DNA of 64,000 nt from an uncultured Planctomycetia bacterium (GCA_964597545.1 CAZQXN010000009.1:16-64015), one strand, 5' to 3'. Numbered from the stretch's first letter, positions 17,017 to 60,003 are shown. A program made the numbers and translations. Notes: generated by a model from the letters alone, not told the origin.

Positions 17017-17589
17017 ATGATTGTAAGAAAGCGCGATCTCAACTTCTGGGAAAAGCTGTACCTGCCGGAGATTATCCGGGGGGTTGCGGTCACCTCCAAG
17101 CACTTCTTCAAAAACCTCTGGCTGCATACCGCCCACCGGGCGGGTCTTTTCAAAGATCGCCAGGCAGCGGTCACCTATCAATACCCGGAAGATCCCCGTC
17201 CCCTCTCGCCGCGTTTGAGGACCCGGCATCGCCTCACCGTTCGCGCCGAAGGGACCCCGCGATGCGTAGGCTGCATGATGTGTGAAACGATCTGTCCGGC
17301 CAAGTGCATCACGATTGTGGCTGGGGAGCACCCTGACCCCCATGTCGAGAAATACCCTGTCCGGTTTGACATTGATTTAGGGATGTGCGTCTATTGCGGC
17401 TACTGCGTGGAGGCTTGCCCTGAGGATGCGATTCGGATGGATACCCAAATTCTAGACATCGCCAGCACCAGCCGAGACGACATGAAGCTGGACCTGCATG
17501 CCCTGATGGATCCTAAGCTGCGCAAGCCGCTGACGCGTTGCGCCTTAAGCTTTCCGCACCACTGCGCTTTCCAAAAACCGGCGCCCTAA
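17017..17589 (+). CDS. nuoI: NADH-quinone oxidoreductase subunit I
   Basis: Two CxxCxxCxxxCP ferredoxin motifs (CVGCMMCETICP, CVYCGYCVEACP). Confidence 0.9.
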   Translation: MIVRKRDLNFWEKLYLPEIIRGVAVTSKHFFKNLWLHTAHRAGLFKDRQAAVTYQYPEDPRPLSPRLRTRHRLTVRAEGTPRCVGCMMCETICPAKCITIVAGEHPDPHVEKYPVRFDIDLGMCVYCGYCVEACPEDAIRMDTQILDIASTSRDDMKLDLHALMDPKLRKPLTRCALSFPHHCAFQKPAP

Positions 17590-18998
17590 AACAGAGCCCG
17601 AACGGTAGCAAAGGCCAGCTGAACCCAAGGTCCCTGGAAGATTCCGATTCCCACCATCGCCACCAGGCAAGCATAAAGGGCTATTCGGATTGAAAGTGCG
17701 ATGGGAATCGGGGAGGCCTCCGTCGGGGGGTCGGCATACATGGTCTTGACGATCAAAAGATAGTAGTACAGGGAGATGATCACTCCAGCCAACCCCACGA
17801 GCCCCAAGCCCAGATGGGCCTGATGAAAGGCCGACAAGAGCAGCAGGAACTTTCCGAAGAATCCGGATAGCGGCGGAATGCCGGCTAAAGACAACAAGGC
17901 CACCAGGAGTGTTGCCGCCAACAGGGGAGAGCGGCGGCTTAAGCCCGCGTAATCCCGAATTTCATCGGATCCCACCTGCCTCGAGAAAGCGATGACCACC
18001 AGGAAGACCGCCAGGTTGGTAAAGAGGTAGCTCACCAGGTAGAAGTTGATTGCTGTGGCCCCCAGGCTGGTGCCCGCGGCCACTCCGATCAGGAAATATC
18101 CCGCATGGCCAATCGAGGAATATCCCAAGAGGCGCTTGATATTCTTCTGCGGGATGGCACCCAAATTTCCATAGAGGATGGTCAGCCCCGCAATCCATGC
18201 AACGAGGCCTGTCCAGGCCTCTGCTTGCGGCAAGAAGATCTCGTAGAGCAGCCGAAAGATAACCAAGAGCCCCACGGCCTTAGAGCCCACAGAGAAGAAG
18301 GCGGTGACCGGTGTGGGGGCCCCCTGGTAGACATCGGGCGCCCACAGATGGAAAGGAACCGCCGCCACTTTGAAGAGTACCCCGGCCAAGACCAATAGGA
18401 GCCCCAGCATAAGCCCGGCCGGCAGCAGCGTGGCGGATTCAACCGCCTGTCGGATTGCAGAAAATTGGATCGACCCGCTGGCACCGTAAAGGAAGGCGAC
18501 ACCATACAGCAGGAAGGCCGAAGCCACGGAACCGAGGATCAGGTACTTTATCCCGGCCTCCAGGGAAGCGGGATGGGTCTTGAGGTATGCAGTGAGGATG
18601 TAAAAGGTGATGGTGACCAGCTCCAAGGAAACAAAGAGCATCAAGAAGTTTGCTGAGGAGGCTGCAAACATCATTCCCAGGGTAGCGGTCAAGATCAGCA
18701 GATAAAACTCCCCATGTCCTTCTGCCAGGGTCGCCTGGAACTGACGAGTCATGAGCAGCACCAAGAAGGCCGTGCCCACGAAGATCGCCTTAAAGAAGAT
18801 GGCCAGCGCATCCACCCGATACATGCCCCCTAGAACTTCCTGCGGGGCAGCGTGCCACTGCATTGCCAGCAAAGGAAGTGCCAACAGAATGCCCGCAGCC
18901 GAGATCGTCCCCATCCAGAAGAGTCGCTTAGGAATGCGTGTCAAGTCCATGGCCAGCACCCCGAGAATCAGCAGGCCTACGTAAAGCTCCGGAAGCAT
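17586..18998 (-). CDS. nuoN: NADH-quinone oxidoreductase subunit N
   Basis: ND2-family antiporter-like subunit (FHLWAPDVYQGAPTPV motif). Start taken at MLPELYVGLL. Its stop codon overlaps the nuoI stop on the opposite strand. Confidence 0.85.
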   Translation of the reverse strand: MLPELYVGLLILGVLAMDLTRIPKRLFWMGTISAAGILLALPLLAMQWHAAPQEVLGGMYRVDALAIFFKAIFVGTAFLVLLMTRQFQATLAEGHGEFYLLILTATLGMMFAASSANFLMLFVSLELVTITFYILTAYLKTHPASLEAGIKYLILGSVASAFLLYGVAFLYGASGSIQFSAIRQAVESATLLPAGLMLGLLLVLAGVLFKVAAVPFHLWAPDVYQGAPTPVTAFFSVGSKAVGLLVIFRLLYEIFLPQAEAWTGLVAWIAGLTILYGNLGAIPQKNIKRLLGYSSIGHAGYFLIGVAAGTSLGATAINFYLVSYLFTNLAVFLVVIAFSRQVGSDEIRDYAGLSRRSPLLAATLLVALLSLAGIPPLSGFFGKFLLLLSAFHQAHLGLGLVGLAGVIISLYYYLLIVKTMYADPPTEASPIPIALSIRIALYACLVAMVGIGIFQGPWVQLAFATVRALF

Positions 18999-19030
18999 CA
19001 CAGACCAGCCGGTAGGGGGGGTGAGGGGCG

Positions 19031-20521
19031 TCACAGCCTTGCCACTGCCTCCAAGGGGCTCAAGTGAAAGAGTAGCTGCTCCACTGAAGGGCTGATCACA
19101 TCCAACAAAAGCCTGGGCCAACAGCCGACAATCAGCAGGCCTGCCAAGAGGATGAGATACGGAACGCGCTCAAAAACAGTGGCGTCCTTAATGGTGGACC
19201 ATCTCGGATTTGGGGGCCCAAAGAAGCCGGTCCGAACGGCTCGAAGCATGTAAAAGGCGGTGATGACAATCCCGAAGATGGCTGCGACGGCCAACCATCG
19301 GTATGGATTCCATGCGCCAAAGAAGATCAAGAGCTCTGAGGCAAAGTTTGCAAATCCAGGCAGCCCGGCCGAGGCCAGCGCAGTCATGACAAAGGCGACC
19401 GCAATAAAGGGGACCTGGCGGGCCAGTCCGCCCCACTCGGCAGTCAGCCGCGTATGGGTTTGGTCGTACACGTGCCCCACTGCGGCAAAGGCCAGGGCGG
19501 TCATCAGGCCGTGAGCAAACATCAGCAGCACCGTGCCGTTGAGGGCGATGGGATTGAGGCAGGCAATTCCGAGCAGGACATACCCCATGTGACTTGAGGA
19601 GGAGTAGCCGATCATGAACTTGATGTCCTTTTGAGCCATGGCGACATAACCGCCGTAGATCACGTTCATGATGGCAATCCCCGCCACCCACGGCAGCCAC
19701 GCAAAGGCCCCTTCCGGCAGCAGTTGGACTGCGATTCTTAGAATCGCGTAGGATCCCAGCTTCATCAACACCCCTGCGTGCAGCATGCTCACTGCCGAAG
19801 GGGCTGCGGCATGGCCAATTGGAGACCAAGAGTGGAGTGGCCACATGGGGGCGATGACGCCAAAGCCAATCAACAGAAAAGGAAAAAGCCAGATTTGCAG
19901 ATGGCTGGGAAGAGGGTGCTGGGCCAGAAAGCGCTCCAGGAAGATCAAGTCAAAGGTCGCAACGCCGGAGGTCAGGTACAGCGCGAACAAGCCCGCCAAG
20001 GCCAAGACTGCCCCGGCCGAAAGATAAAGGGTCAGCTTCATCGTGGCGTAGCTCTTCTCCCCGGAGCCCCAGATGCCGATCAAGGGAAACATGGGGATCA
20101 CCGCCATCTCGAAGAAGAAGTAGAAGAAGAAGATGTCCAGGGAGGTGAAGACCCCATACACTGCGCCGATCAGCAGCAAGTAGAAGATGTAATAGGTTTT
20201 GACCCGCTCATGGATGCGATAGGAGATGAGCACCCCGGTGAAGCTGCAGAAGGCGTGCAGCAGGGTCAGGATCAGGCTGATGCCGTCAACCCCCACTTGG
20301 TATTGGATGCCCAAAGAAGGAACCCACGGGATCCGGTGGACCCACTGGTACCCAGCGGCAGTTCGATCGTACTGCACAAGCAGCCACAGGACGATCAAGA
20401 GCGGAATGCCGGTTGCGATAACGGCCACGCGTCGCACCCAGGCCTCTTGCCGGTTCGGGATGAGAATAAGAGACAAGGCTCCCAGGAAAGGGAGGAGCAG
20501 AATCCAGGTCACAGGGTTCAT
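19031..20521 (-). CDS. nuoM: NADH-quinone oxidoreductase subunit M
   Basis: ND4 family; start taken at MNPVTWILLLPFLGA. Confidence 0.85.
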   Translation of the reverse strand: MNPVTWILLLPFLGALSLILIPNRQEAWVRRVAVIATGIPLLIVLWLLVQYDRTAAGYQWVHRIPWVPSLGIQYQVGVDGISLILTLLHAFCSFTGVLISYRIHERVKTYYIFYLLLIGAVYGVFTSLDIFFFYFFFEMAVIPMFPLIGIWGSGEKSYATMKLTLYLSAGAVLALAGLFALYLTSGVATFDLIFLERFLAQHPLPSHLQIWLFPFLLIGFGVIAPMWPLHSWSPIGHAAAPSAVSMLHAGVLMKLGSYAILRIAVQLLPEGAFAWLPWVAGIAIMNVIYGGYVAMAQKDIKFMIGYSSSSHMGYVLLGIACLNPIALNGTVLLMFAHGLMTALAFAAVGHVYDQTHTRLTAEWGGLARQVPFIAVAFVMTALASAGLPGFANFASELLIFFGAWNPYRWLAVAAIFGIVITAFYMLRAVRTGFFGPPNPRWSTIKDATVFERVPYLILLAGLLIVGCWPRLLLDVISPSVEQLLFHLSPLEAVARL

Positions 20522-22371
20522 TGGAGAGCCACGTAAAGAATGAAGGTCAGTCCTGCCAGCAGCACCAAGGCATAGCCTTGAACCTGACCGGTTTGTGCAC
20601 GTCTGAGTGCCGAGCCGGTGAGCTGCGTAAGCCGCGCGATACCGTTGACCCACAGGCCGATGATCACGATGCGCTCAAAGAGGCCCAAGAGTATGGCCAA
20701 CCGCTGTTGAATGTTTCGGTTGATCCATGCGTAGAGCTCATCCATGTAATACTTGCGCTTGAGGATCGTTCCCAGACCCAGGAATCGATCTCTCAACGCA
20801 GGCTGCAGTGAAAATCCTCTCTGGTAGATGGCATAGGCCAGTACCAATCCGGCGACAGCGACCCCAGTGGACAGGAGGGCCACCGGTAGGCTAAATGCGG
20901 TATGCGCTGATCCTAAGTGGGCGCGATGGAGGAAGGCTGGAATTCCCAGAAAGCCAGCTGCCGTCGAGAAGATTGCCAGGACGACCATCGGTATCGTCAT
21001 CACGCGCGGGGATTCATGAGCATGTTCTGCGGCAGCGGTGCGGGGGCGGCCTAAGAAAACAAACCAGGCCAGTCGCCCCACATAAAAGGAGGTCAGTCCC
21101 GCTGTAAACGTGCCCACAATGCCTAAGAGGGGGTTTTGGGTGAGGGCCAAGGCTAAGATTTCGTCTTTACTCCAGAAGCCGGCAAGCGGAAAGATTCCAG
21201 CCAGGGCCAGGGCGGCAATCCCAAAGGTGATGGAGGTCCACGGCATCCGTTTGAATAACCCTCCCATCTGGCGGATGTCATTGGTGTGCAGCGCGTGGAT
21301 GACAGACCCTGCTCCTAAGAAGAGCAGGGCCTTGAAAAAGGCGTGCGTGGTCAAGTGGTATGCCCCGGCAATCGCACCCCCTAGACCGATCGCCATAACC
21401 ATATAGCCCAGCTGGCTTAGGGTGGAATAGGCCAGAATGCGTTTGATGTCGTTTTCGACCAATGCCATGCTGGCGGCAAAAAGGGCGGTGAAACCGCCTA
21501 TGACTGCAATCCAAGACATCAATTCCGGTGCGCTGGATACCAGGAAGAAAACCCGAATCAGCAGATAGACGCCCGCTGCCACCATGGTGGCAGCATGAAT
21601 CAAAGCCGAGACCGGGGTAGGGCCCTCCATGGCATCCGGTAGCCAGACGTGTAGGGGAAATTGCGCTGATTTTCCGACGACACCACAGAAGATCAGCCCC
21701 CCGGCAGCTGCAAGCATCCCGGTCGTTATGGTGCCGCTTGCCAACAAAGACCCTAAGCGCTCTGCCAGCAGATAGAAGTTTAGGGTGCGCACTGTCCCAT
21801 CAGCGCCTGAAAGGTTCCACAGCATAAGGATACCCATGAGGAAGCCGAAGTCGGCCAGCCGGTTGACCAAAAAGGCCTTCTTGCCGGCTTCGGCCGCCTG
21901 GGGCCGTTCATACCAGTGGCCGATCAAGAGATAGGAGCTGGCTCCGACCAACTCCCAAAAGATGAAGAGGGTGATGAAGTTATTGGCCAGCACAATGCCC
22001 AGCATGGAGAAGGCAAAGAGGGCAAGCATCGCAAAATATCGCGGAACCCCTTGGTCCTTAGCCATATAGCCGATCGAATAGATGAAGATCATCAACCCCA
22101 CGCCGGTGACCACCAGGCTCATCAAGATTGCCGGGGCATCCAGGAGCAGCCCAAACTCAATAAAAAGTTCGGGCAGGACAATCCAAGGCAGAGAGGTTTC
22201 CAGGACGTGCTCGCCCAGTCGCAGAAGAGCTGCACAAGAGCCCAAGAAGGAGAGGGCCATCGCCCCTATGGCAAGACGAGCGCTGGCGCTGCGCGATTTA
22301 CGGGCAAAAAGCACAATACTCATGCAGGCGAGCATGGGGGCAAAGAGGATGATCCAGGGCAGCACTACCAT
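20518..22371 (-). CDS. nuoL: NADH-quinone oxidoreductase subunit L
   Basis: ND5 family, 617 aa, with the long C-terminal amphipathic region; overlaps the nuoM start. Confidence 0.9.
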   Translation of the reverse strand: MVVLPWIILFAPMLACMSIVLFARKSRSASARLAIGAMALSFLGSCAALLRLGEHVLETSLPWIVLPELFIEFGLLLDAPAILMSLVVTGVGLMIFIYSIGYMAKDQGVPRYFAMLALFAFSMLGIVLANNFITLFIFWELVGASSYLLIGHWYERPQAAEAGKKAFLVNRLADFGFLMGILMLWNLSGADGTVRTLNFYLLAERLGSLLASGTITTGMLAAAGGLIFCGVVGKSAQFPLHVWLPDAMEGPTPVSALIHAATMVAAGVYLLIRVFFLVSSAPELMSWIAVIGGFTALFAASMALVENDIKRILAYSTLSQLGYMVMAIGLGGAIAGAYHLTTHAFFKALLFLGAGSVIHALHTNDIRQMGGLFKRMPWTSITFGIAALALAGIFPLAGFWSKDEILALALTQNPLLGIVGTFTAGLTSFYVGRLAWFVFLGRPRTAAAEHAHESPRVMTIPMVVLAIFSTAAGFLGIPAFLHRAHLGSAHTAFSLPVALLSTGVAVAGLVLAYAIYQRGFSLQPALRDRFLGLGTILKRKYYMDELYAWINRNIQQRLAILLGLFERIVIIGLWVNGIARLTQLTGSALRRAQTGQVQGYALVLLAGLTFILYVALQ

Positions 22372-23233: not shown

Positions 23234-24124
23234 TTGATCATGGCAACTCCCCACCTTCCCGTGGAACAACTACCCGCCCGTGCTCGTGACATTCGGAAAG
23301 AAGTGATCCGGATGCTGGCTGCGGCAGGCTCTGGGCATCCGGGCGGTTCCCTTTCGGAAGCCGAGATCCTGGCCGCGCTCTATTTCCATCTCCTTCGATG
23401 CGATCCCCGTCGCCCCGATTGGGAGGATCGGGACCGCTTTGTCCTGAGTAAGGGGCATGGGGTGCCTGCGCTCTATGCGGCCATGGCACTGGCCGGATAC
23501 TTCCCGAAGGAGAAACTTTCGACCTTGCGTCAGTTGGGATCCCCCCTGCAGGGTCACCCCGACATGCGGCGCTTGCCGGGACTGGAGGCCTCCTCCGGCT
23601 CCCTGGGGCAGGGGCTTTCCGTCGCCATTGGCATTGCGCTTGCTTTGGCCTTGGACCGCAAGGGGTGCTGGACCTACTGCCTCATGGGTGATGGTGAGAA
23701 CCAAGAGGGGCAGGTGTGGGAGGCAGCGGCTTTTGCAGGTTTTAGGCGCCTGGATCACTTGATTGCCATTGTAGATTACAACAAATTCCAGCTCGACGGC
23801 GCCATCAAAGATATCGGTGATCTGGAACCTCTTACCTCCAAATGGGAAGCCTTTCGCTGGCACGTCCAAGAGGTGGATGGCCATGACATTGCTCAGTTGC
23901 TGTCGGCTGTTGAGCAGGCCAAGTCCACCGAAGGCCAGCCCCATCTGATTATTGCCCATACCGTCAAGGGCAAGGGTGTTTCCTTCATGGAGGGGAACAA
24001 CGCCTTTCATGGGGTGGCCCCAACCCAAGAGGAGATGGAGGCTGCTCTGGCCGAACTCGATGGAGATCCATCCGCCTCCCAAGCCCTGATCGCAACTGGC
24101 AAGATCAAGCAGGGGGGCAAGTGA
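23234..24124 (+). CDS. transketolase, N-terminal (TPP-binding) subunit
   Basis: Transketolase N-terminal motifs (GHPGGSLS, GDGENQEG) in a stand-alone 296-aa protein. Confidence 0.85.
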   Translation: MIMATPHLPVEQLPARARDIRKEVIRMLAAAGSGHPGGSLSEAEILAALYFHLLRCDPRRPDWEDRDRFVLSKGHGVPALYAAMALAGYFPKEKLSTLRQLGSPLQGHPDMRRLPGLEASSGSLGQGLSVAIGIALALALDRKGCWTYCLMGDGENQEGQVWEAAAFAGFRRLDHLIAIVDYNKFQLDGAIKDIGDLEPLTSKWEAFRWHVQEVDGHDIAQLLSAVEQAKSTEGQPHLIIAHTVKGKGVSFMEGNNAFHGVAPTQEEMEAALAELDGDPSASQALIATGKIKQGGK

Positions 24125-25086
24125 CCATGGCGGTAATGGCTAAGACGATGGGAAAGGCAACGCGCGATGCCTACGGCGAGGCCCTTTGTGAGCTGGGGCG
24201 CAAGGACCCCAGGATTGTGGTGCTGGATGGAGATCTCTCCTGCTCGACCCGGACCAGCCTCTTTGCCGCTGAGTTCCCGGATCGGTTTTTCAACGTCGGC
24301 ATCGCTGAAGCCAACATGGTCAGCATGGCCGGCGGCTTGGCCCATTCCGGGAAGATCCCCTTCATCTCCAGCTTTGCCTGCTTTATGACCTGCAAGGGAT
24401 ATGACCAACTTCGCATGTCTGCTGCTTTCCCTCGACAGAATGTTAAGGTGGTTGCCTCCCACGGCGGCATTTCGGTGGGCGAGGACGGCGTCAGTCAGCA
24501 GTCGATCGAAGATGTGGCCCTGATGACATCACTGCCCCACTTTACCGTTACCATCCCGGCGGATGAGCATGCGACCCGCGCTTTGGTTCTGCAGTCGGCA
24601 GTCCTGGATGGCCCCTTTTACATGCGGACCGGCCGGCCCAAGGCGCCGATCATTTATAAGCCGAGCGACTCCTTCCAGATCGGCAAGGGGATCCGTTTAC
24701 GTGAAGGTAAGGATGTGACCCTGGTGGCCAATGGGTTGATGGTCTACGAGGCCTTGGTGGCAGCAGGGAAGTTGGCTGCTCAGGGGGTCTCTGCCGCGGT
24801 TGTGGACATGCATACGGTCAAGCCCTTGGATGAGAAGCTGCTCTTGGCTCAGGCCAAGGCAACCGGGGCCATGGTCATCGCCGAGGAGCATCAAATCTGG
24901 GGCGGTTTGGGCTCAGCGGTTGCGCGCTTGCTTGCCAACAACAGTCCCGTCCCGATGGAATTTGTAGCGATCCAAGACATCTACGCAGAATCCGGAAAAC
25001 CGGCTGAGCTTCTTGAAAAGTACGGTTTAACGGCCCGCCAGATCACCGAAGCGGCCCAGCGCGTTCTCCCCAGGAAGAAGGGGTGA
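24121..25086 (+). CDS. transketolase, C-terminal (pyrimidine-binding) subunit
   Basis: Transketolase Pyr and C-terminal domains in a 321-aa protein; its start overlaps the stop of the N-terminal subunit gene. Confidence 0.85.
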   Translation: MTMAVMAKTMGKATRDAYGEALCELGRKDPRIVVLDGDLSCSTRTSLFAAEFPDRFFNVGIAEANMVSMAGGLAHSGKIPFISSFACFMTCKGYDQLRMSAAFPRQNVKVVASHGGISVGEDGVSQQSIEDVALMTSLPHFTVTIPADEHATRALVLQSAVLDGPFYMRTGRPKAPIIYKPSDSFQIGKGIRLREGKDVTLVANGLMVYEALVAAGKLAAQGVSAAVVDMHTVKPLDEKLLLAQAKATGAMVIAEEHQIWGGLGSAVARLLANNSPVPMEFVAIQDIYAESGKPAELLEKYGLTARQITEAAQRVLPRKKG

Positions 25087-29904: not shown

Positions 29905-32900
29905 ATGCGCATGTTCAACGCCAGACGAATAATCCACATATTGCTTATCCTTGCCTTTTCGTGCACAGAGGCACAGGCTCTGCGACAGGTCAGTCCCAAG
30001 CAGTCGGATGGGGTCCGGCAGGAGTTAGCCGCCGGCTTGGAGGAGACAGCAACTCAGAACGTTACAGAACTCATCCACCGCGAGGGCAAAACAAACGCTC
30101 TTTTTCCGGGTACCCGGGTGGTCAATCTTATCGCCGAGGAGGATGACCCTGTTTTTATTAGAGGTGTTCAATACGAAGCAGAAGTGAATAATGGACTGCG
30201 CAGGCTGAATCAGACAGGGTTTTTCTGGGTGACGAATGGTTCTGGGCGGCTTGAGCTTGGCGCTACCTCAGAACCGATCAGATACGGGAAGATCATATAT
30301 CTTCCCAGGGACATCTATTTTAGAGTTGTTCCCAACTTTGGCCCTGGGCAGCCCCCGCTAGAGCTTCTTCAGATCTTTCCGTGCCGCCCTGAGTCATTTC
30401 GGCTTTCCAAAAGCGTTACCCCAGAACAAGCCAACACCGCAGAGGCATTGGAAGGCTGCCTTGGCTACTCATCGGGCGAGGTTGACGATGTAATCCTCAA
30501 TTTCTCGCCCAAAATGGATGGGCTGGATGTTGTCCGCTACCGCAGCTCAAGCACCAGACCCACCCTCATGCTGGATGCTTCTGAGCACCCGAGTGTCCTT
30601 GTTGCCATGTCCGGCACAGCCAGGGTCAAAGGCAAAGTCAACACGCAGGATTGGGAAAGAATCCTCACAGAGGGTGATGTGCGCCGCTTGCCTGTTTTTG
30701 ATGGTCCCTTCTCGATTTCCGGTGATCGGATCATCGTTTTGGCCATTGGACCTGAAGATTCTGTTGGGCCCAAGACCCAAGATGGGCTGAACGCCTTAAT
30801 TAAAGTTGCTCCTCCGCCGACTCAGCCGCTTTCATTCCGAATGGCAGATGTTTATGTTGTAGGGGGTGCTGGCGACATCCCTTCCTCGACTGAGCGCTTG
30901 CCATCTGAAAGAGGTGATTTTGCTGCTGCAGATCTTGGAGGGGGTCAGGCGGACTCGACATCAATCGATCAAAGAGCGCTGGCTGATGCCGAAGAAGACG
31001 ATGAGGGTGGTCCAGCCGCAGAGGAAGAGGAAGGAGAGGCAGCACTTAAAGCAGCTCGCAAGACTGCTGCAAGAAGACCATCCGCAAAAGCCGGGGAGCC
31101 CTCTGTGGCGAAGGCAACCAAGCAACCAAAAAGGAAAGCCCCCAAGAAGAGCTTTGAAGAAAAGGCTGGTTTGCGCAAGATGCTTCGCAAAAAAGGCAGA
31201 TACGGCGGAGTTGCAGTAGGCTTCACCGAACCGCTCGAGTTCTTAAACGGCATGGAGGTGGCTGAGCAGCACATCGCGCACCGCCAGCTTGCTGCCGCGC
31301 TCTCCGCCGAGGAAGGAATAGCGTCTTTACACGTTTTAAGTCCCGCCAAGGGCGGGGAGCAATGGCTAGAGTTTGCGATTCCAAAACGGCAACCCGAGGA
31401 GCTGATTGCTTCTGTTCGGGATTTGTTGCCGCAGGGGCCTGAATATATCCTGCTGGAGGCAGATGAGGGGCACTTCTGGCTCATGCCGCAGGCTGTTTTC
31501 TGGAGGCCTTCAACGGAAGGCCAAAGGCAGAGGTTCAAAGAGCTCGTTAGGCGGACTGAACTCGGAGAAGGAAGGAGGCAGGTACAGGCTTTCCAGAGCC
31601 TGCTCAATCGGTTCTCTGAAGAAGGGGGTGTGCCCCTCACAGGGGGTGTGCGGATGCGTGTTTCCTCCTGGTATAAATTTTTTCTTTTCAGCTCAGCGCT
31701 TCAACCTGGTACGCGGGTAGGGTCTGTGCTTGCGCTACCTAGTCAATATAAACACCAAGCAGTTCATGTCGTGCCGAGGCAAGAGGAAGGAAGGCTGGTC
31801 TTGTCTGTTTATGGATTGTCCCCTTTTCGGCTAATCCACTCTTATAGCCGCGATGCTGATTCCGGATACTACACTTTGGCAGGGACCGTCATAGGGGACA
31901 AGGTTGCCTCCCTGCCAGATGCATCCCAGAAGGCTTTTCCTGCAGTCGACGAGTCGCGCGGCTATAAACGCTCTGAGCTTTCGAAGGTGACCGGTTTGCC
32001 AAACCCCTTGCTCAACCGCCTAGAGAAACGAGGGGTGGTTTATCTGGACTCCGCTCAATTGGTACCGGGCTGGCTGGTTGCTCTATTGGCCGGGGCTTCG
32101 AGGGAGGCGGACAAGAAGATATACCCCATCAGCGGTCTTACTCTTTTCCTGAGTCTCACCAGGCACGCTGCCGATCGGGCGTGGAGGGTCTCAGGGCTGC
32201 CTGCGATTGAGCAGCCCGGAGAGCAGAAGATGCTAGCGCGCGAAACAGTTTTGGAGATCGTGCTTACCTATCGCTTTAAAGACAAGGTAGAGGAATTGGC
32301 CGGCCCTTATCTGGATTGGCGGGCGGCAGCCAAAAGGCTGAAAATAAAAAGTACCGTACTAAAGTCCTGGCCGACCGTTGCTCAGAGAGTTCCAGTCTCT
32401 AATGGATTTCCTCTCTGGGTGGCCTCTGGTTCGGTGCACCGGATTACCCACCTTGGAGTTGAGGGGCTTCTTGAGGCGGAGCAGGAGGCGGTGCAAGCCG
32501 CAGAAGAACAAGGCAAGAGAGTCCTTTTTCATGCCGCTCAGAAGCGCTTTCCTGACGATTTGGTTTCAAAGCAGATTCTGTTGTATCGGCGGATGTTCCG
32601 GGCAGCGAAGGAACTTGGCATCCCTCTGGAGGTGCTCGAGCACCCCCTTGCCCCGGTTCAAACGCGCTACATCGTTCCCCAGGGACGCTTGGAAGAGATC
32701 TTTCATGAGGTTGATCACCCGATGGCCTGGACTCCTAGGAATATTCAGACGGGGTCCAGCTATATCATGAGCTCAGCTGCGCGGGTACTGGGCTTTAGAA
32801 ACGGAACTGTGGCGAAAAACTGGCTCACGGGCGAGCATCCCGAAGTTAACCTTGCGCAGGAGCTTGGGCATTCTTGGGTGTCGGGCGCCGATCTCATTCG

Positions 32901-35900
32901 CGTTGCAGAGGAAAAAGCTTCTTCCTCCGGCCAAGAAGAGGGTGGCCTGGAAGAGACAGCAACCCAGAATGTTTCGGAGTTGCTGTACCGGGAGGGCCGG
33001 ATAAGCGCTCTGGCTCCGGGCGTCAAGGAGTTCAACCTTATTGCCAAAGCGGGCGACCCTGCCTTCGTAAGGGTGGTCCGATACGAACCTGGGGAGGGCA
33101 ATGGGCTGCGCAGGCTAAACCAGCCAGGACTTTTTTGGGTGGCAGGTGGCTCTGGGCAGCTTGAGTTGGGTGCTACCTCAGGACCAATCTCTGCAGGGCA
33201 GATCATCTATATGCCCAGCGATGTCTATTTTAGAGTAATTCCCAGCGCTACTCCCGGGCAGCCCCCCTTGGATCTTCTTCAGATATTTCCGCGCCGCCCA
33301 GATTCACTTTGGCCTCCCAAGGGCGCTTCCCCCGAGACAGTCAACAGCGAAGAGGCATTGGCAGGCTGTCGCCTCTACTCCTGGGGCGGACCTGAGGATA
33401 CAATCGTCAATTTCTCGCCCAAGATGGATGGGTTGGATGTCGTCCGCTACCGCAGCTCGAGCGTCACACCCACCCTCATGCTGGATGCCTCTGATCATCC
33501 CAGAGTCCTTGTTGTTATGTCTGGTAGGGCTCGGATTCGGAGCCAGGTTAACCAAGATAACTGGAACAGGCTCCTGTCAGATGGAGACTTAATCCGTCTT
33601 CCGGCGACTGAGCACCCCCTCTCGATCTCCGGAGATCCAGTCACCCTCCTCGCCATCGGACCTAAAGATTCCATTGAGCCCAAGGCAATCGAGGCGCTGG
33701 GCAGGTTGACCGCCGCCCATCCGCCAGTTCAGCCGATGACATTCCAAGTGGTGGACAGCTTTGTTGCGGGAGGTGTTGGTGATTTTTCCGGGCGCGGAAG
33801 TGAGCGCATGCCCTCTGAGACAGGTGATTTTGCTGCAGTCGACCTTGCGGGGGGGCGGGCAGATGTGGCAGCGGTCGATCAAAGAACGCTGGCAGATGCC
33901 GAGCAGGAAGATGACTCTGCGGCAACCGAACCGGACAAAGAGGAGGAGAAGGCACTCAAGGCAGTTCGCAAGACTGCGGCAAAGAAGCCATCCAAGAGAG
34001 CCAGTGAACCTTCTGCAGCGAAGCCAACAAGGAAACCAAAGAAAAGAGTTTCCAGGAGGAGCTTCGAAGAACAATCTGGAGTACGCAAGATGCTTCGTAG
34101 GACTGGGCGTTCCGGCGCAGTCGCAGACGGTTTCACCAAACCGCTTGAGTTCTTAAACGGTATGACGGTCGTTGGGCAGCATATTGCCCACCGCAGGCTT
34201 GCCGTCGCCCTTTCTTCCCACGAAGAAATGGTTTCTCTGCACGTTCTCAATTCCGTCAGGGGCAGAGATCAATGGATGGAATTTGCGGTTCCAGAAAAGC
34301 AGCGAGGGGAGTTGTTCGCCTCTGTTCGTGGCCAGCTATTACCGGGTTTTGAGTATATCTTGCTGCAGGCAGATGAGGGCCATTACTGGCTTATGCCGCA
34401 AAGTGTTTTCTGGAGAACCTCTGCGGGGGGCCAAAGAGACAAGCTTAGAAAACTCCTTAAGCTTGCAGAGTTTGAGGAGGGGGAACGCCAAGAAAAAGGC
34501 CTTGATCGGTTGCTTAAGCAATTTTCCGAAGAAGAAGGCGAACCACTAACGAGAGGGGTTCGGATACGTGTTACGGCCGATTACCAAGCCTACCTCTTTA
34601 AGCTGGCGCTGGAGAGTGGCCGCTATTGGTCCGCCTACCTCACCGTGCCCATTGCTTACCGGCATCAAGTGATTCATGTTGTGCCGAGGTTGGGGGAGGA
34701 GGGGGTGGTGTTGAATGTTTACGGACTGTCTCCCTACAGGCTGGTTCAATCTTTTAGTTGGAATGCGGGCTCCAGAAGATACAAGGCACTTGAAACGGCC
34801 TTAGAGAGGCGGATTGCATTTGCGCCGGATATCGCCGAGAAGAAACTTCCTCAGATTGAAGCGGCGCGCGGATATGAGCGTTCTGAGCTTGCGAAGGTGA
34901 GCGGATTGCCCAACAGACTGCTTAGCCGATTGGAGAGTCAGGGTATTGTGTATCTGGATTCCTCTAACTTGGTGCCTGGGTGGCTGGTTGCATTATTGGC
35001 AGAGGCTTCTAGGGAAGTGGACAAAGCCGAATATCCCGCTTCTGCTCTAAGCGTTTTGTTGGGGCTTGAGAACGAGACTGCGGTGCAGTTGTGGAGGCGT
35101 TCGGGGCTGCCCAGTATCCGGGCGTCTCGGCAGCGGAACTTGCTGTCGCGTGAGGTGGTTCTGGAGCTTGTGATTACGCGGCGCTTCCAGGATGAAGTAG
35201 AGAAATTGGCCGGCCCTTATCAGGAATGGAGAGCAGCAGGCAAGAAGCTGTCGATCGGTGCCCACCCCCTTTCTTCTTGGCCGTCTATCGCCCAAACCGT
35301 TCCTGTCTTTAAGGGTTTTCCGCTTTGGGTGAAATATAGGTCATGGCACCGTCTCACTCACCTTGGGTTTGAGGGGCTTGTCGAGGCGGAGCAGGAGGCA
35401 GTGCAGGTTATTCAGGATGCGGGTAAAGCGGTTCTCTGGAGTGCGGTTCAGGATCGTTACCAGAGGAAGCCGCGCAGTAATTTCCTCGCACAGTATTCCC
35501 GAGCTTTTCAAGCGGCAATGGAACTCAATATTCCCGTTGAGGAGCTTGAGCACCCCCTTGCTCCGGTTCAAACGCGGTATGTGGTTCCCCAAGAACGTCT
35601 GGATGAGGTCTTTAATGAGGTGGATGAGCCGACAGCTTGGACCACAAAGACAGTCCTATCGGAGGGATGGTATGCGCTCTCATCTGTCAGGCAGGCGCTG
35701 GGATTGACTGAAGGGGCTCTGAAGCGACGGGTCTACGCAGGAGCCCTTGGTGATTTCAAAAAGATAGAAGGCAAGCTTTGGGTATCGGGAGCCGGCATCC
35801 TTCAGTATGCCGAGAATCAACCATCCCGCTCCGGCCTCGAGGAAAACAACCTGGATGCGCGGGTCGCCCGGATGCAGCGGCGCCTTGGCCAGGAAAGAGC

Positions 35901-36249
35901 AGATGTCGTTCTGGGCCCAGTCTACGGTCTTTTGTCAGACTACCACTCTTCCCGTATCCATGATGCTCCGAAGCTTTTCGACCAATATGTGGATTTGGTC
36001 TCTGAAACCTTCTCCGACGATGCGGGGTCTGTCTTCTGGGTCACCTTGCAGACCTTGCGCCACCTAGAGACCCTAGACGGCATCGCCTCCCCAGAAACAG
36101 TCCTTCGGCAAGCCCTAGAGCAGTTCAGCGGCCCCCAAGAACCTCTCAACTGGGACAACTTCTCCCAATTTGAACCCCCCTGGAATTCCTTCAAGGGTAT
36201 ACTCTCTTGTGCGAGAATTTGGACCCTCAGGGCGTCGCCAGAGCGCTGA
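29905..36249 (+). CDS. giant (2114-aa) protein with a signal-peptide-like N-terminus and two tandem ~970-aa modules; function unknown
   Basis: Single uninterrupted ORF. N-terminus MRMFNARRIIHILLILAFSCTEAQA has the n/h/c regions of a signal peptide with an AQA site. Residues 44-1013 and 1014-1980 are clearly homologous to each other. I recognise no characterised family. Confidence 0.8.
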   Translation: MRMFNARRIIHILLILAFSCTEAQALRQVSPKQSDGVRQELAAGLEETATQNVTELIHREGKTNALFPGTRVVNLIAEEDDPVFIRGVQYEAEVNNGLRRLNQTGFFWVTNGSGRLELGATSEPIRYGKIIYLPRDIYFRVVPNFGPGQPPLELLQIFPCRPESFRLSKSVTPEQANTAEALEGCLGYSSGEVDDVILNFSPKMDGLDVVRYRSSSTRPTLMLDASEHPSVLVAMSGTARVKGKVNTQDWERILTEGDVRRLPVFDGPFSISGDRIIVLAIGPEDSVGPKTQDGLNALIKVAPPPTQPLSFRMADVYVVGGAGDIPSSTERLPSERGDFAAADLGGGQADSTSIDQRALADAEEDDEGGPAAEEEEGEAALKAARKTAARRPSAKAGEPSVAKATKQPKRKAPKKSFEEKAGLRKMLRKKGRYGGVAVGFTEPLEFLNGMEVAEQHIAHRQLAAALSAEEGIASLHVLSPAKGGEQWLEFAIPKRQPEELIASVRDLLPQGPEYILLEADEGHFWLMPQAVFWRPSTEGQRQRFKELVRRTELGEGRRQVQAFQSLLNRFSEEGGVPLTGGVRMRVSSWYKFFLFSSALQPGTRVGSVLALPSQYKHQAVHVVPRQEEGRLVLSVYGLSPFRLIHSYSRDADSGYYTLAGTVIGDKVASLPDASQKAFPAVDESRGYKRSELSKVTGLPNPLLNRLEKRGVVYLDSAQLVPGWLVALLAGASREADKKIYPISGLTLFLSLTRHAADRAWRVSGLPAIEQPGEQKMLARETVLEIVLTYRFKDKVEELAGPYLDWRAAAKRLKIKSTVLKSWPTVAQRVPVSNGFPLWVASGSVHRITHLGVEGLLEAEQEAVQAAEEQGKRVLFHAAQKRFPDDLVSKQILLYRRMFRAAKELGIPLEVLEHPLAPVQTRYIVPQGRLEEIFHEVDHPMAWTPRNIQTGSSYIMSSAARVLGFRNGTVAKNWLTGEHPEVNLAQELGHSWVSGADLIRVAEEKASSSGQEEGGLEETATQNVSELLYREGRISALAPGVKEFNLIAKAGDPAFVRVVRYEPGEGNGLRRLNQPGLFWVAGGSGQLELGATSGPISAGQIIYMPSDVYFRVIPSATPGQPPLDLLQIFPRRPDSLWPPKGASPETVNSEEALAGCRLYSWGGPEDTIVNFSPKMDGLDVVRYRSSSVTPTLMLDASDHPRVLVVMSGRARIRSQVNQDNWNRLLSDGDLIRLPATEHPLSISGDPVTLLAIGPKDSIEPKAIEALGRLTAAHPPVQPMTFQVVDSFVAGGVGDFSGRGSERMPSETGDFAAVDLAGGRADVAAVDQRTLADAEQEDDSAATEPDKEEEKALKAVRKTAAKKPSKRASEPSAAKPTRKPKKRVSRRSFEEQSGVRKMLRRTGRSGAVADGFTKPLEFLNGMTVVGQHIAHRRLAVALSSHEEMVSLHVLNSVRGRDQWMEFAVPEKQRGELFASVRGQLLPGFEYILLQADEGHYWLMPQSVFWRTSAGGQRDKLRKLLKLAEFEEGERQEKGLDRLLKQFSEEEGEPLTRGVRIRVTADYQAYLFKLALESGRYWSAYLTVPIAYRHQVIHVVPRLGEEGVVLNVYGLSPYRLVQSFSWNAGSRRYKALETALERRIAFAPDIAEKKLPQIEAARGYERSELAKVSGLPNRLLSRLESQGIVYLDSSNLVPGWLVALLAEASREVDKAEYPASALSVLLGLENETAVQLWRRSGLPSIRASRQRNLLSREVVLELVITRRFQDEVEKLAGPYQEWRAAGKKLSIGAHPLSSWPSIAQTVPVFKGFPLWVKYRSWHRLTHLGFEGLVEAEQEAVQVIQDAGKAVLWSAVQDRYQRKPRSNFLAQYSRAFQAAMELNIPVEELEHPLAPVQTRYVVPQERLDEVFNEVDEPTAWTTKTVLSEGWYALSSVRQALGLTEGALKRRVYAGALGDFKKIEGKLWVSGAGILQYAENQPSRSGLEENNLDARVARMQRRLGQERADVVLGPVYGLLSDYHSSRIHDAPKLFDQYVDLVSETFSDDAGSVFWVTLQTLRHLETLDGIASPETVLRQALEQFSGPQEPLNWDNFSQFEPPWNSFKGILSCARIWTLRASPER
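30034..32943 (+). repeat. module 1 of the intragenic tandem duplication (970 codons)
   Basis: Begins GLEETATQNVTELIHREGK and ends ...SSSGQEEG; aligns colinearly with module 2. Confidence 0.8.
32944..35844 (+). repeat. module 2 of the intragenic tandem duplication (967 codons)
   Basis: Begins GLEETATQNVSELLYREGR and ends ...SRSGLEE; roughly 55-60% identical to module 1 by eye. Confidence 0.8.
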
Positions 36250-38411
36250 CGCACTCTGACTTCACAGACAACATTCGATTGCCAAACCTCACCACCAAAA
36301 AACCCGACTGGCGCTCCATCCAGCTTGATGGAAGGCGGGCTGTCGCAATCTCAAGACTGCTCGGCTTCTTGCCGGAACGGCACCGCTACGCCATGCTGCA
36401 TTCCGGCAGGGCAATGATCATTGTCCCGCAGGCCACCCTTCTTCAGCCTGCCCCGGAGGAAGAAATCAAGGCTTTTCGCCAACAGGTGCTGCAAGCCCTC
36501 CATGGAGCTCAAGCGGATCGGGACGAAGCGGTGAGGAGATTGCTTCACACCTATCAGAATCCCCTGTGGGGAGCAGAGGGCATTGATGTGCGCGTTCCGA
36601 GCACCGCATCGGGCCTCTACCTCTTTTATCTGGGGGCGGCCATGGGCGTACCCAAGAGTGTGATGATCAATTTCTCACGTACCCGAAGGAATCAGGTGAT
36701 GCGCCTGATCCCCTGCGTCCTGGACGGGGAGTTGTATTTGGAGGCGTACCAGCACGCCCCTTTTCAATTTGACCGGAGAGTGAAGTGGAATAAAAAATCG
36801 CTGTCTTTCAGGGGTGTCAGCGGACCGATTCAGACTTACAGCCGTTTTGGCCAGTCTGCCGATATCCTTCGAGCTCTGGATGGAATTGATCCGGATTTGG
36901 ATTATGAGCCCGACTTTGAACGACTCCAACAACTGACGGGCATTTCTCGTGAGGTCCTGGATGAACTGGGCAGCCGGGGCTATCTGTATCGGAATCGATC
37001 CGGAAAGATCCCAGGCGATTTGGTGCGGCTTCTGGAAGGCGAATCCAAGAAATACAAGCAGAAGTGGTATACCGCCGGCATCTTTACTCGTGGCCTGGAC
37101 CAATCAACAAGGGACGTTGACGGTCTTCAGCACCGGGCTCGCTTCGGCGTCCTGGAGGAGCCAGGCAGTTCCAGGCGGTACAGCCGAAACTCTGTCTTGG
37201 AGATCATCTTGACCAAGAAACTTGAGGAATGGATCAAGAAGGAGGTGGGGGGTTTTGTTTCAAGGGAGAAGGTTTTGTCCGATGACAAGGTGGGCATCAA
37301 CGCCAGGCGCTTAAGGCGCTGGCTCAAGCAGAGTAGATCACCCTTCCTAAAGAAAGCTGGAGTTCCTGTGTGGGTCACTTTGGATGAGAGGCACTACCTG
37401 ACCGGCAAGGGTATTGAGGCCGAGAAACGGGCCTTGGCGAGAATCCCTGCAACCCATACTATTCTTGCCGATGCCATGAGGCGAGCGTACACATTTGATG
37501 ATGATCTGCACTTTGCCGACTTTTACTTAGAGGTTTTTCGGGCTGCGCAGGAGCTCGGCAAGGAGTGGAAGTTCTGGGAACACCTCTTTGCTCCGATACT
37601 GACCCTGGTTGTTGTGAAAAAAAGAGATCTAACAGCCATCTTCAAGGAGGCGGAGCATCCTACAGCTTGGAGCGTTTCTCAGATCAAGCCGGACCGCTAT
37701 TACGGCAATGGCACCGTTGTACGCTTGAGCGGTTATAAGCCCAATACAGTGTCGAACCACTTTTCGAATAACAAGATAGCAAGCGTGGTAGCTCTCGGGC
37801 GGCACTGGGCTCCGGGCCCTGAGGTTATCCGCCTTGCCAGAGCGCGTGAAGCATCTGCCGGTTTAGAGGAGCTGTCGCCAGAAATTGTAGAGATTTTGAG
37901 GGAGCAGCCGGGGGCTGCGGTTACCTGGGCTGTTATTGAGCCGGCCGGCTTGGAGGATCTGCCAAGTACGGTAGCCATACAAAGAATTCCGGCTGACACG
38001 GGAGAGGCTCCAGATATACCTAGGCAACCCCTTGTGATGGTGCAGAAGGGGCTCCTGCCGGAGGAGGTGCTGCGGCAAATGGATCAGGGGGGCTGGGCTG
38101 TTCGGTTGCTTCCGGAGAAGCCAGGTGGAGATGGGCTTGAGCATGCCGTGGCAGTTGGCTTAGAGGAACAGGAAGGGCCTCTTTTGGTGATCGTGGAGGC
38201 CTCCCTTCAAGATGCGGTGAGAAGGCTGACGGCCTATGACAGGGTAACGGCTGTGGTGCTGGAACAGGGTATGGCACAGCTGCTTGCGCCGGGAAATCTA
38301 ATCTTATTCCTCAAGCACACCTTGGCCCATCTTCCGGGGCGCTTCCTCGATTTACAGATCTTTTTAGCGGCCGGCCAAGAAGAGCTTTTTGCAGTGGCAG
38401 ACCAGCTGTAA
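36207..38411 (+). CDS. 734-aa paralog of the C-terminal half of the giant-protein module; function unknown
   Basis: Shares colinear blocks with the modules, for example FRAAQELGKEWKFWEHLFAPILTLVVVKKRDLTAIFKEAEHPTAW versus FRAAKELGIPLEVLEHPLAPVQTRYIVPQGRLEEIFHEVDHPMAW, plus the SAGLEE junction motif and HTH-like segments. The start is either the TTG at 36207 (overlapping the giant ORF by 43 nt) or the ATG at 36393. Confidence 0.65.
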   Translation: MCENLDPQGVARALTHSDFTDNIRLPNLTTKKPDWRSIQLDGRRAVAISRLLGFLPERHRYAMLHSGRAMIIVPQATLLQPAPEEEIKAFRQQVLQALHGAQADRDEAVRRLLHTYQNPLWGAEGIDVRVPSTASGLYLFYLGAAMGVPKSVMINFSRTRRNQVMRLIPCVLDGELYLEAYQHAPFQFDRRVKWNKKSLSFRGVSGPIQTYSRFGQSADILRALDGIDPDLDYEPDFERLQQLTGISREVLDELGSRGYLYRNRSGKIPGDLVRLLEGESKKYKQKWYTAGIFTRGLDQSTRDVDGLQHRARFGVLEEPGSSRRYSRNSVLEIILTKKLEEWIKKEVGGFVSREKVLSDDKVGINARRLRRWLKQSRSPFLKKAGVPVWVTLDERHYLTGKGIEAEKRALARIPATHTILADAMRRAYTFDDDLHFADFYLEVFRAAQELGKEWKFWEHLFAPILTLVVVKKRDLTAIFKEAEHPTAWSVSQIKPDRYYGNGTVVRLSGYKPNTVSNHFSNNKIASVVALGRHWAPGPEVIRLARAREASAGLEELSPEIVEILREQPGAAVTWAVIEPAGLEDLPSTVAIQRIPADTGEAPDIPRQPLVMVQKGLLPEEVLRQMDQGGWAVRLLPEKPGGDGLEHAVAVGLEEQEGPLLVIVEASLQDAVRRLTAYDRVTAVVLEQGMAQLLAPGNLILFLKHTLAHLPGRFLDLQIFLAAGQEELFAVADQL

Positions 38412-59028: not shown

Positions 59029-60002
59029 TGTCCTGGAAGCCGTATGAGTTGACCATTGGGTTGCCGCAGACCAACTACCGGCATTTCGCTGAGGTGAAGT
59101 TGCTCATGGAGGCCGGTAACTTCTTCTGGTGGGCTCTGGGGGAGGCCATGGGCTCCCCTGTATCGAAACTTCGTTCCGACACAGGGGAGCCGCTCTATGC
59201 GACCATCTACTTCATCGAGGAGAACTTCCCGTTCGAGCGCTCCCTGCCGAGTTTCACGTTGGATGACCGGTTGAACTTCTTCGTTGCGCTGCGCACCCTG
59301 AGGAATACAAGCGTCGAGGGCCGCGTTGTCTTTGATCGCGCAGACCGAATTGCTTCCGCGGAGGAGAACAGTTCCTGGTGCACTGAAGGATCTGCCCATC
59401 CATGGGTTCGATACGGCTCCATTTTTGCCGCCCCTGAAGCCGGCACCAACAAGCTGACCGTCGCCTCCCCGGCCAATGCCACCGCAACGAAGCTGCCCCC
59501 GTTGCCGTTTGGGGAGAATCCCGCTCGCATTACGCGAGAAGCAGAGGCCACCGGTCAACTGGGGGTGATCCCAGAGGACTGGGTTTCCTTGGATGCTGCG
59601 GGGTCGGTTTCGGTCACATACGCCATCGATCCGGACCGGGATACCAACGCGGCGGGGTTGGTTTATTTCGCCAATTATGTTGCTTTCATGGAGGTGGCAG
59701 AGCGTCAGGTGCTGGTTCGGCCCACGGCATCGGGCAAAGGGCTTACCAGCGAGCTCCTTGCCCAGCGCCGGGTGCTGCGGCGGAGAATCGCTTATTACGG
59801 CAATGCCAGCTTGTCTGGCCAACTGATGATTGCGGTTTCTCGATTTGCACCGCCGGCCTCATCTGACCTGGTTGGGCTTCGGTACCGCATCACCCTGGCA
59901 GGACAGGAGAAGCCGATCTGTCTCTCAGAGGTGCTGTTTGCCCTTTCGCCGCTGGCCAGTCTACACTCTCAAGGAGCTGCCGCCGAAGGCAAGAAAAGGT
60001 GA
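59025..60002 (+). CDS. LnmK-like double-hotdog protein (probable ACP acyl-loading acyltransferase/decarboxylase)
   Basis: Two 4HBT-like halves (…NYRHFAEVKLLMEAG… and …DTNAAGLVYFANYVAFMEVAE…), ~325 aa as in LnmK-like proteins. Confidence 0.45.
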   Translation: MMSWKPYELTIGLPQTNYRHFAEVKLLMEAGNFFWWALGEAMGSPVSKLRSDTGEPLYATIYFIEENFPFERSLPSFTLDDRLNFFVALRTLRNTSVEGRVVFDRADRIASAEENSSWCTEGSAHPWVRYGSIFAAPEAGTNKLTVASPANATATKLPPLPFGENPARITREAEATGQLGVIPEDWVSLDAAGSVSVTYAIDPDRDTNAAGLVYFANYVAFMEVAERQVLVRPTASGKGLTSELLAQRRVLRRRIAYYGNASLSGQLMIAVSRFAPPASSDLVGLRYRITLAGQEKPICLSEVLFALSPLASLHSQGAAAEGKKR

Positions 60003-60003
60003 G

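Follow-up and report, generated by a model that had tools for sequence, protein, structure and literature searches.

We examined a 64,000-nucleotide stretch of DNA from an uncultured Planctomycetia bacterium (GCA_964597545.1, CAZQXN010000009.1:16-64015; one strand, 5' to 3'), hereafter the window, in which two overlapping open reading frames (ORFs) at 29905..36249 and 36207..38411 are very probably two pieces of one ancestral gene of ~2,835 codons, cut by an insertion or deletion of 1 nucleotide (nt). The reading that we favour as a whole—a split gene of this length that belongs to a family of GLEE-punctuated proteins and encodes an exported, nucleic-acid-binding modular protein with GLEE motifs that are read in trans—we regard as likely. 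The elements that meet at the break are as follows:

29905..36249, + strand: ORF 1, the "giant", 2,114 codons, with two tandem modules
36207..38411, + strand: ORF 2, TTG start, 734 amino acids (aa), overlapping the end of ORF 1 by 43 nt in the -1 frame
36175..36180, + strand: frame-break site, a C6 homopolymer at which one extra C joins both ORFs
36181..36249, + strand: out-of-frame tail of the 2,114-aa ORF, WNSFKGILSCARIWTLRASPER and a stop, without a homolog and probably outside the real protein

The frame break at the C6 run

The 734-aa ORF has a single relative in the databases, P0001 (54% identity), which is encoded on a 3.3-kb Joint Genome Institute (JGI) contig, L001, and is followed there, as in the window, by a HAD hydrolase. 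In this ortholog, one continuous frame reads PFEGPLEFLAGYAPSREDLTPQHIARALTHS and stays open upstream to the contig edge, with GAA GGT CCT CTA in frame at the site itself. In the window, the frame of the 734-aa ORF has a TGA at 36171-36173 and directly after it reads TPLEFLQGYTLLCENLDPQGVARALTHS, upstream of the first possible start; homology in this frame begins at PLEFLQGY, from 36177 onward, and the frame of the giant supplies the matching QFEPP immediately before the C6 run. Between the flanking conserved codons the window is 1 base shorter than L001, and the two frames swap roles at the C6 run—with one C added, a 2,835-codon ORF with zero internal stops results. The alignment to the paralogous modules also spans the break, with F-T-(E/K)-PLEFLNG at the homologous position of modules 1 and 2, and the junction segment taken alone gave p ~0.001 against shuffles. 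Moreover, translation from the earliest start in this frame (TTG 36207) would leave out the first 10 codons of the conserved domain, the first 20 residues of the structural model having predicted local distance difference test (pLDDT) scores of 83-89, and no promoter or terminator signal above chance was found between the ORFs. The extension of homology upstream of every start, together with the frame swap at the C6 run, argues that the 734-aa ORF is not a free-standing gene. In all seven family members with complete termini, the leader and the C-terminal domain (CTD) described below sit on one polypeptide; in the window, they are divided between ORF 1, which has the leader, and ORF 2, which has the CTD. 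The single leader-to-CTD ORF in syntenic relatives lends further support to the repaired reading.

The possibility that the 734-aa ORF is an independent, separately translated paralog born of a local duplication, as an earlier note on this DNA had assumed in describing a separate adjacent gene, appears very unlikely. The two ORFs do exist as assembled, the 2,114-aa protein is recorded at NCBI and a weak AAGGG lies 9 nt upstream of TTG 36207, but homology to modules 1/2 and to L001 starts before translation could begin there and passes from one frame to the other at the C6 run, a 43-nt overlap is unusual, the syntenic relatives have one ORF, and two genes would place the leader and the CTD on separate products, a division seen in none of the seven complete members. 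In addition, the 734-aa product was not retrieved at any start from a 5.8-billion-cluster protein collection, from which near-identical proteins were likewise absent, though the same collection holds the products of both neighbours on the same NCBI contig (P0002 and P0003); in the deposited annotation, the 734-aa ORF may never have been called as a protein. Programmed -1 ribosomal frameshifting at A CCC CCC U, yielding 2,114-aa and 2,835-aa products, is more improbable still. A -1 slip of tRNA-Pro on CCC CCC would yield the homologous F-E-P-P-L-E-F-L exactly; against this, the heptamer does not follow the canonical X XXY YYZ pattern, the other relatives have single ORFs, and we rejected the mechanism because the site is unconserved, L001 lacking the slippery run, because shuffled sequences fold as well as the downstream RNA (z = 0.02) and because an Rfam search of the site returned no element.

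The missing base may reflect either an assembly error or a real, very recent mutation. A real mutation—either recent pseudogenisation or slipped-strand on/off switching at the C tract, leaving a 2,114-aa protein without module 3 and the CTD—deserves more credence than the two preceding readings, although we lean against it. Among the genes examined, the break is the sole one at any of the 67 homopolymer runs of at least six in the window; the other 66 break no gene examined, so the assembly is not generally error-prone and there is room for a real mutation. The sole ortholog, on L001, likewise has a frame break, there at another homopolymer (a G7 run near L001:425, GGGGCGGGGGGGC, within L001:400-450, where the gene caller gave 145-aa and 563-aa pieces), and other members look truncated, namely P0007 relative to P0006, as well as P0006 and P0004, which have no type-1 CTD. 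Yet a C6 run is short for a phase-variable tract, and the frame downstream of the break in the 734-aa ORF remains fully open over 745 codons, with no stops and 51-54% identity to L001, so any inactivation would have to be very recent. Contigs of this kind also break housekeeping genes: on a groundwater metagenome contig, SdhA is split into 276- and 292-aa ORFs (L011:5179-6906), which indicates that such breaks occur in assemblies of this kind and can be assembly errors. Besides the intact state of the other 66 runs, several points weigh against our reading of a split gene: the 2,114-aa product is the deposited NCBI protein, a leader and a CTD on one uninterrupted ORF are found only after one base has been added to the assembled sequence, and an exact-pattern scan of JGI metagenomes turned up no second copy of the C-run site.

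Similarity and age of the module copies

The split gene contains three copies of a common module, two of which, at aa 51-1016 and aa 1021-1984 of the giant, stand in tandem. The earlier note had described the 734-aa ORF as colinear with the C-terminal part of both, and this was borne out: its aa 48-555 align with giant aa 501-1012 in module 1 (25% identity, BLASTP E 9e-40) and its aa 125-555 with giant aa 1551-1980 in module 2 (25% identity, E 6e-32), the FRAAQELGKEW... and EAEHPTAW blocks lying inside these alignments. Smith-Waterman scores against modules 1 and 2 were 423 and 380, compared with averages of 40 and 41 over 200 shuffles (sd 5.4 and 5.9), corresponding to z = 71 and 58; scores no better than shuffled controls would have spoken against the kinship, and the similarity stands. 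An overlap with the giant ORF, which measures 43 nt, and the SAGLEE junction motif (aa 550-555 of the 734-aa ORF, nt 37854-37871) are present as that note had suggested, and comparison of the modules agrees that the third copy has no cupin or basic segments.

The same note had further read the three copies as a locally expanding paralog family, with recent, ongoing duplication. Identities computed on 469 shared columns give a different picture. Modules 1 and 2 pair together at 51% identity, with a synonymous divergence (dS) of ~1.2 and a nonsynonymous-to-synonymous ratio (dN/dS) of ~0.28; module 3 has 51% identity to its L001 ortholog, 24-26% to modules 1/2 and 26-31% to the modules of other organisms. 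Since module 3 is no closer to modules 1/2 than to foreign modules, the duplication is old, and by these estimates there is no recent duplication in the window. Tandem doubling of the module also recurs in other lineages (P0004 and P0021). Of the original description, a third diverged C-half ending in SAGLEE remains, whereas the adjacent gene and the expansion do not.

Layout of the restored protein

Once the frame is restored, the protein can be laid out from end to end as follows:

29905..29979, + strand: signal-peptide-like N-terminus, MRMFNARR + IIHILLILAFSC + TEAQA, assigned by inspection and a Kyte-Doolittle value of 2.71 over 12 aa
29980..30045, + strand: conserved leader LRQVSP...AAGLEE, with LR[PEQ] 18 aa before the first GLEE
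30034..32943 (aa 44-1013), + strand: module 1, comprising a cupin-like part, an acidic and then a histone-H1-like basic stretch, and a C-half of ~570 aa (31231-32943)
32944..35844 (aa 1014-1980), + strand: module 2, a tandem copy of module 1 with 55% aa identity over 967 aa
35845..36174, + strand: segment of ~110 aa after the third GLEE, replacing the cupin and basic parts in module 3
36177..37871, + strand: C-half of module 3, PLEFLQGY ... SAGLEE, sharing its frame with the 734-aa ORF and having its first 10 codons upstream of the TTG
37860..38411, + strand: CTD of type 1, AGLEELSP to ...AVADQL and the stop codon, from profile matches to other C-termini
30034-30045, 32944-32955, 35833-35844 and 37860-37871, + strand: GLEE junction motifs, with an internal, structured one at 38157-38168

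The third GLEE-delimited unit measures 676 aa and contains the same core of ~565 aa as modules 1 and 2. The ~110-aa segment that precedes module 3 resembles segments of P0006 and P0007 weakly (E 0.013-0.05), and this resemblance was not used as evidence. In module 2 only, aa 1057-1111 gave a match to Cupin_2 (PF07883; E 0.0075) that remains below the cut-off, with 16.4 bits compared with a gathering threshold of 27.2. In modules 1 and 2, an acidic run (DAEEDDEGG..EEEEGE) is followed by a Lys/Ala/Pro/Arg-rich, histone-H1-like run, KAARKTAARRPSAKAGEPSVAKATKQPKRKAPKK, at approximately 30970-31215 and 33880-34125; module 3 has neither. Searches of Pfam, NCBIfam and PADLOC returned no significant match to either ORF. 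As the anti-phage defence models of PADLOC matched neither ORF, a defence system was rejected, and the suggestion of a possible conflict system in the earlier note finds no support here, the locus being embedded among genes of core metabolism. A surface or matrix protein, also mentioned in that note, is a possible identity.

A rare protein family with a conserved leader, GLEE motifs and C-terminal domain

To delineate the family, a profile of the three window copies and P0001 was searched against 1.84 billion cluster representatives, among which only 19 matches were obtained. A core module of ~500 aa occurs in six proteins, some with two or three copies, and the last ~180 aa alone are common to eleven proteins, where they form the extreme C-terminus of polypeptides of 227 to 2,835 aa with otherwise unrelated content; the CTD profile matches the C-termini of P0005, P0009-P0012, P0014-P0018 and P0020. 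What had been taken for a unique C-terminus of ~200 aa is instead a conserved domain of ~180 aa with which the proteins of at least 12 other clusters also end. The stretch at 37860-38408 aligns with 12 such CTDs at 31-65% identity (hmmsearch domain E-values of 1e-20 to 1e-41), the ends reading ..[ST]QL or ADQL. Intact N-termini consist of a basic cluster, a hydrophobic stretch of 12 residues, often A-x-A, then LR[PEQ] and finally [AST]GLEE. The window giant matches this layout, which is also present in 12 other members, and the spacing from LR to the first GLEE is 17-18 aa in 8 members including the window protein and 10-15 aa in others with both motifs.

Between leader and CTD, the family carries cargo as diverse as complete enzymes, tetratricopeptide repeats (TPR), WD40 repeats and DNA-binding arrays, punctuated by GLEE. 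The motif occurs 57 times in 18 proteins, compared with ~1.9 expected, and each protein carries 3 to 8 of them; A, S or T stands immediately before the motif in 52 of the 57 cases, and P, G, S and E abound in the flanking sequence. In the repaired window protein, GLEE stands at the boundaries (aa 44, 1014, 1977 and 2653) and at aa 2752—five observed versus 0.16 expected—and five of the seven matches to G[LMIVW]EE in window ORFs of at least 100 aa fall in this gene. The codons vary synonymously (GGC/GGT, TTG/CTG/CTC/TTA, GAG/GAA), which points to a constraint on the peptide and not on the DNA; a DNA-level recombination site at the module borders was rejected on the same ground, the codons differing synonymously between sites. 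In relatives, GLEE lies 3-13 residues outside complete enzyme domains. In P0009, for example, the GLEE at 1582 precedes a D-threonate-kinase-like domain starting at 1589, and PdxA ends at 2371 with the next GLEE at 2384. P0009 and the repaired ORF are of equal length (2,835 aa), a coincidence, given that their interiors are unrelated.

A literature search for the GLEE motif and the family found no description, and a profile search of genome and metagenome contigs with the module alignment returned no related loci. On the evidence of these searches, the family is very rare and unannotated, its members lying in metagenome genomes labelled Planctomycetia.

Some members depart from the common plan. 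L008:2-17920 contains a tandem array of three giant genes with GLEE motifs (a fragment of >816 aa, 2,389 aa and 2,732 aa), the first two of which have a different C-terminal domain (..EALLMAA and ..LLATAVAA) after the same GQAGQGQSAGLEEG linker; P0008 has a similar-looking C-terminus, ..QELLEAA. The differing C-termini in L008 and P0008 indicate that the family has at least two types of CTD. P0021 (2,594 aa, from a lower-GC organism) is a distant member with two core modules, four XRE-type helix-turn-helix (HTH) domains and HATPase_c; it has the same leader (..GYALRELQPEK), G[IM]EE-like variants in place of GLEE and a different C-terminus.

Genomic context and replacement of the interior

The gene occupies a slot that is also filled on four related contigs, L002, L003/L004 and L011, by P0009 (L002), P0005 (L003/L004) and P0012 (L011), in each case as one ORF running from leader to CTD between sdhB and the HAD hydrolase gene. 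The order of the slot is transketolase N and C, Lactamase_B, FolB, (PTPS, QueC), sdhCDAB, the giant, HAD hydrolase, transglutaminase-like protein and MqnA. The flanking proteins are ~75% identical between the window and its relatives; among the giants, similarity is confined to the leader (35-54% over 24-71 aa) and the CTD (35-45%), save for one core module that the window protein has in common with P0005, at ~30% identity. Otherwise the interiors are unrelated: P0009 contains TPR, HTH, kinase and PdxA domains, and P0012 contains TPR and others. Such full replacement of the interior at a housekeeping locus of otherwise ~75% identity implies cassette exchange.

Other details of this neighbourhood were also recorded. 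The transketolase is encoded by two genes, one for the N-terminal half and one for the pyrimidine-binding and C-terminal halves, in the window (23234-25086) and in all relatives (L002:2174-3972, L003:2266-4205 and L011:421-2298), a genuine split. At L002:18620-19370, an NTP_transf_2/HEPN pair (toxin-antitoxin-like), absent from the window, lies between the giant gene and the HAD hydrolase gene, and in L010 a HicA/UPF0150 pair immediately follows the giant gene.

Structural features of the core module and the C-terminal domain

The AlphaFold2 model of the core module comprises several domains (pLDDT 83, predicted template modelling score (pTM) 0.53), in the order of an alpha/beta part, a beta-rich part (together aa 1-215) and about five small helix-helix-strand units. 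Foldseek found local matches to BldC (6ama; template modelling score on the target (TMt) 0.69, root-mean-square deviation (rmsd) 2.3, probability 0.97), the Xis of Pukovnik (4j2n; TMt 0.70) and GlnR (7tea; probability 0.98), with E-values of 0.3-1.5 for the whole 569-aa query; superposition on BldC/Xis gave a score of ~0.7 on the target and an rmsd of 2.0-2.3 over 51-53 residues. A search of PDB sequences with the module profile returned nothing. Of 13 module copies, 7 match HTH_17 (PF12728) in the homologous last unit, with a best E-value of 1e-9 and scores of 39 bits in P0021, 28.6 in P0019 and 25.3 in P0001 (gathering threshold 27). In this model, the module's approximately five C-terminal units appear winged-helix-like and the last resembles a winged helix of the Xis/MerR (HTH_17) type, an assignment that is partly shown.

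The CTD is modelled as an alpha/beta domain (pLDDT 86.6, pTM 0.83), for which neither a fold search of the PDB (best Foldseek E 3e-3, TMq at most 0.41) nor a sequence profile search of the PDB found a relative. Its alignment has conserved Q, W, R and T residues as surface candidates. A sorting domain of the type IX secretion system (T9SS) was also considered: the CTD had no Pfam or NCBIfam match, and the model is alpha/beta, not a beta-sandwich. In both models, of the CTD and of the core module, GLEE lies in the low-confidence ends.

Proposed function and alternatives

In the mechanism that we propose, the leader would direct Sec export and the core modules would bind nucleic acid, modules 1 and 2 adding histone-H1-like basic tails, while [AST]GLEE would serve as a short linear motif that some factor recognises in trans. 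The strict conservation of these five residues within flexible linkers implies that a dedicated reader exists, be it a protease or a receptor. This reader would most likely be an endopeptidase that frees the modules, making the giant a polyprotein, or alternatively a docking partner; the endopeptidase is favoured because the units delimited by GLEE are complete proteins. The small residue and Gly in [AST]GLEE recall the Ala-Gly sites of LexA-type and signal-peptidase-type enzymes. Taken further, and only tentatively, these features may define a previously undescribed bacterial polyprotein or cargo-display system, in which a Sec-type leader and a C-terminal sorting/assembly domain bracket complete unrelated proteins, GLEE is the site of a dedicated endopeptidase or receptor, and cassettes are exchanged at the sdhB-giant-HAD slot of Planctomycetia-like bacteria.

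A number of points weigh against this proposal. The assignment of the leader as Sec-type, and with it the predicted export of the protein, comes from inspection; many of the relatives' cargo domains need ATP, NAD, S-adenosylmethionine or acetyl-CoA; and DNA binding outside the cytoplasm would be unexpected and sits ill with an export leader, a tension that the proposal retains. The window's own three module copies gave no significant match to HTH_17, and the whole-module fold search produced no match at E at most 0.001. Cleavage at GLEE is purely inferred, and no candidate protease for the motif was found. Moreover, the CTD alignment holds no conserved Cys, His, Ser or Asp, and the domain is therefore no obvious self-processing protease—a role that, with no fold match either, we consider unsupported.

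Docking or assembly is a serious rival to cleavage, and one that we judge possible but on balance improbable: here, [AST]GLEE would be bound by the CTD or another receptor, and the uncleaved giant would act as a multivalent scaffold, for instance in a surface or matrix network that binds extracellular DNA. Strict conservation in flexible linkers and the multivalency conferred by 3 to 8 copies per protein would suit such a role, as would a CTD with no catalytic-type conserved residues, yet with conserved candidates for surface contacts, and the combination of H1-like basic tails on modules 1/2 with winged-helix arrays in the modules; no binding partner was identified, however, and release by cleavage fits at least as well with GLEE-delimited units that are complete enzymes of a stand-alone type.

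Comparison with known systems

By architecture, the closest known systems are MARTX toxins, gingipain-type polyproteins and the polymorphic toxins with junction motifs, and none of their defining domains is present here. Like the window family, whose export is predicted, the MARTX toxins of Vibrio and relatives are giant exported proteins in which conserved N- and C-terminal regions enclose a string of unrelated cargo, the cargo set differs between close relatives at one locus, and short linker sites, processed in MARTX, separate the cargo. In contrast to MARTX, the family lacks RTX or glycine-rich repeats as well as a cysteine protease domain (Pfam and NCBIfam gave no match of this kind in either ORF), carries a Sec-like leader instead of a C-terminal type I secretion signal, uses [AST]GLEE rather than Leu-(A/S/G) as its linker, with processing only presumed, and holds DNA-binding arrays and metabolic-type enzymes but no known toxins. 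The gingipain polyproteins (RgpA/Kgp, with a T9SS CTD) similarly combine a signal peptide, predicted in the family, with a conserved CTD on otherwise different cargo proteins, and their domains are released by cleavage at defined sites, as is conjectured here for GLEE. Unlike theirs, the CTD of the family is an alpha/beta domain of ~180 aa with no match to Por_Secre_tail or to a PDB fold, there is no protease domain, and the organisms are labelled Planctomycetia, not Bacteroidota.

Polymorphic toxins (CdiA with VENN, Rhs with DPxGL) have in common with the family a short peptide that marks the border between conserved and swappable parts and fast turnover at a fixed locus. They differ in that the window family lacks FHA and YD repeats, toxin domains and any immunity-gene pattern, PADLOC gave no match, both ends are conserved while the middle varies, and the motif occurs 3 to 8 times per protein. 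At the level of the domain, the module closes in family members with ~55 aa that match HTH_17, in line with the HTH_17/MerR-Xis domains of BldC and mycobacteriophage Xis. Domains of the BldC type bind DNA as head-to-tail arrays, and the module is likewise predicted to hold several such units in tandem. Here, unlike in those proteins, the units are covalently arrayed in a module of ~565 aa within a leader-bearing giant, and the window copies have diverged too far for Pfam significance.

Other features of the window

Two further observations concern parts of the window away from the giant gene. At 59830-62219, an ORF of 406 aa with no Pfam match lies directly upstream of, and overlaps, a gene for a membrane O-acyltransferase of the MBOAT family. 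At 17586-22371, a block of positive AT-skew (0.17 to 0.27, 18-24 kb) coincides with minus-strand genes for membrane subunits of the Proton_antipo_M family (NuoL/M/N or Mrp-like).

Implications

For annotation, the record of 2,114 aa and the unrecorded piece of 734 aa should become one gene of ~2,835 codons or be flagged as a frameshift, and readings of copy number or paralog expansion that rest on the split are misleading. The repaired gene reveals a grammar that can be checked—a leader, cargo separated by [AST]GLEE and a common CTD—and that searches of Pfam, NCBIfam, PADLOC, the PDB and the literature did not recognise. The combination of an export leader, enzymes dependent on ATP or NAD and DNA-binding arrays poses a concrete puzzle. 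Should the proposed processing be shown, the family would be a polyprotein system new to bacteria, from organisms that carry the label Planctomycetia, whose cell biology is still under debate.

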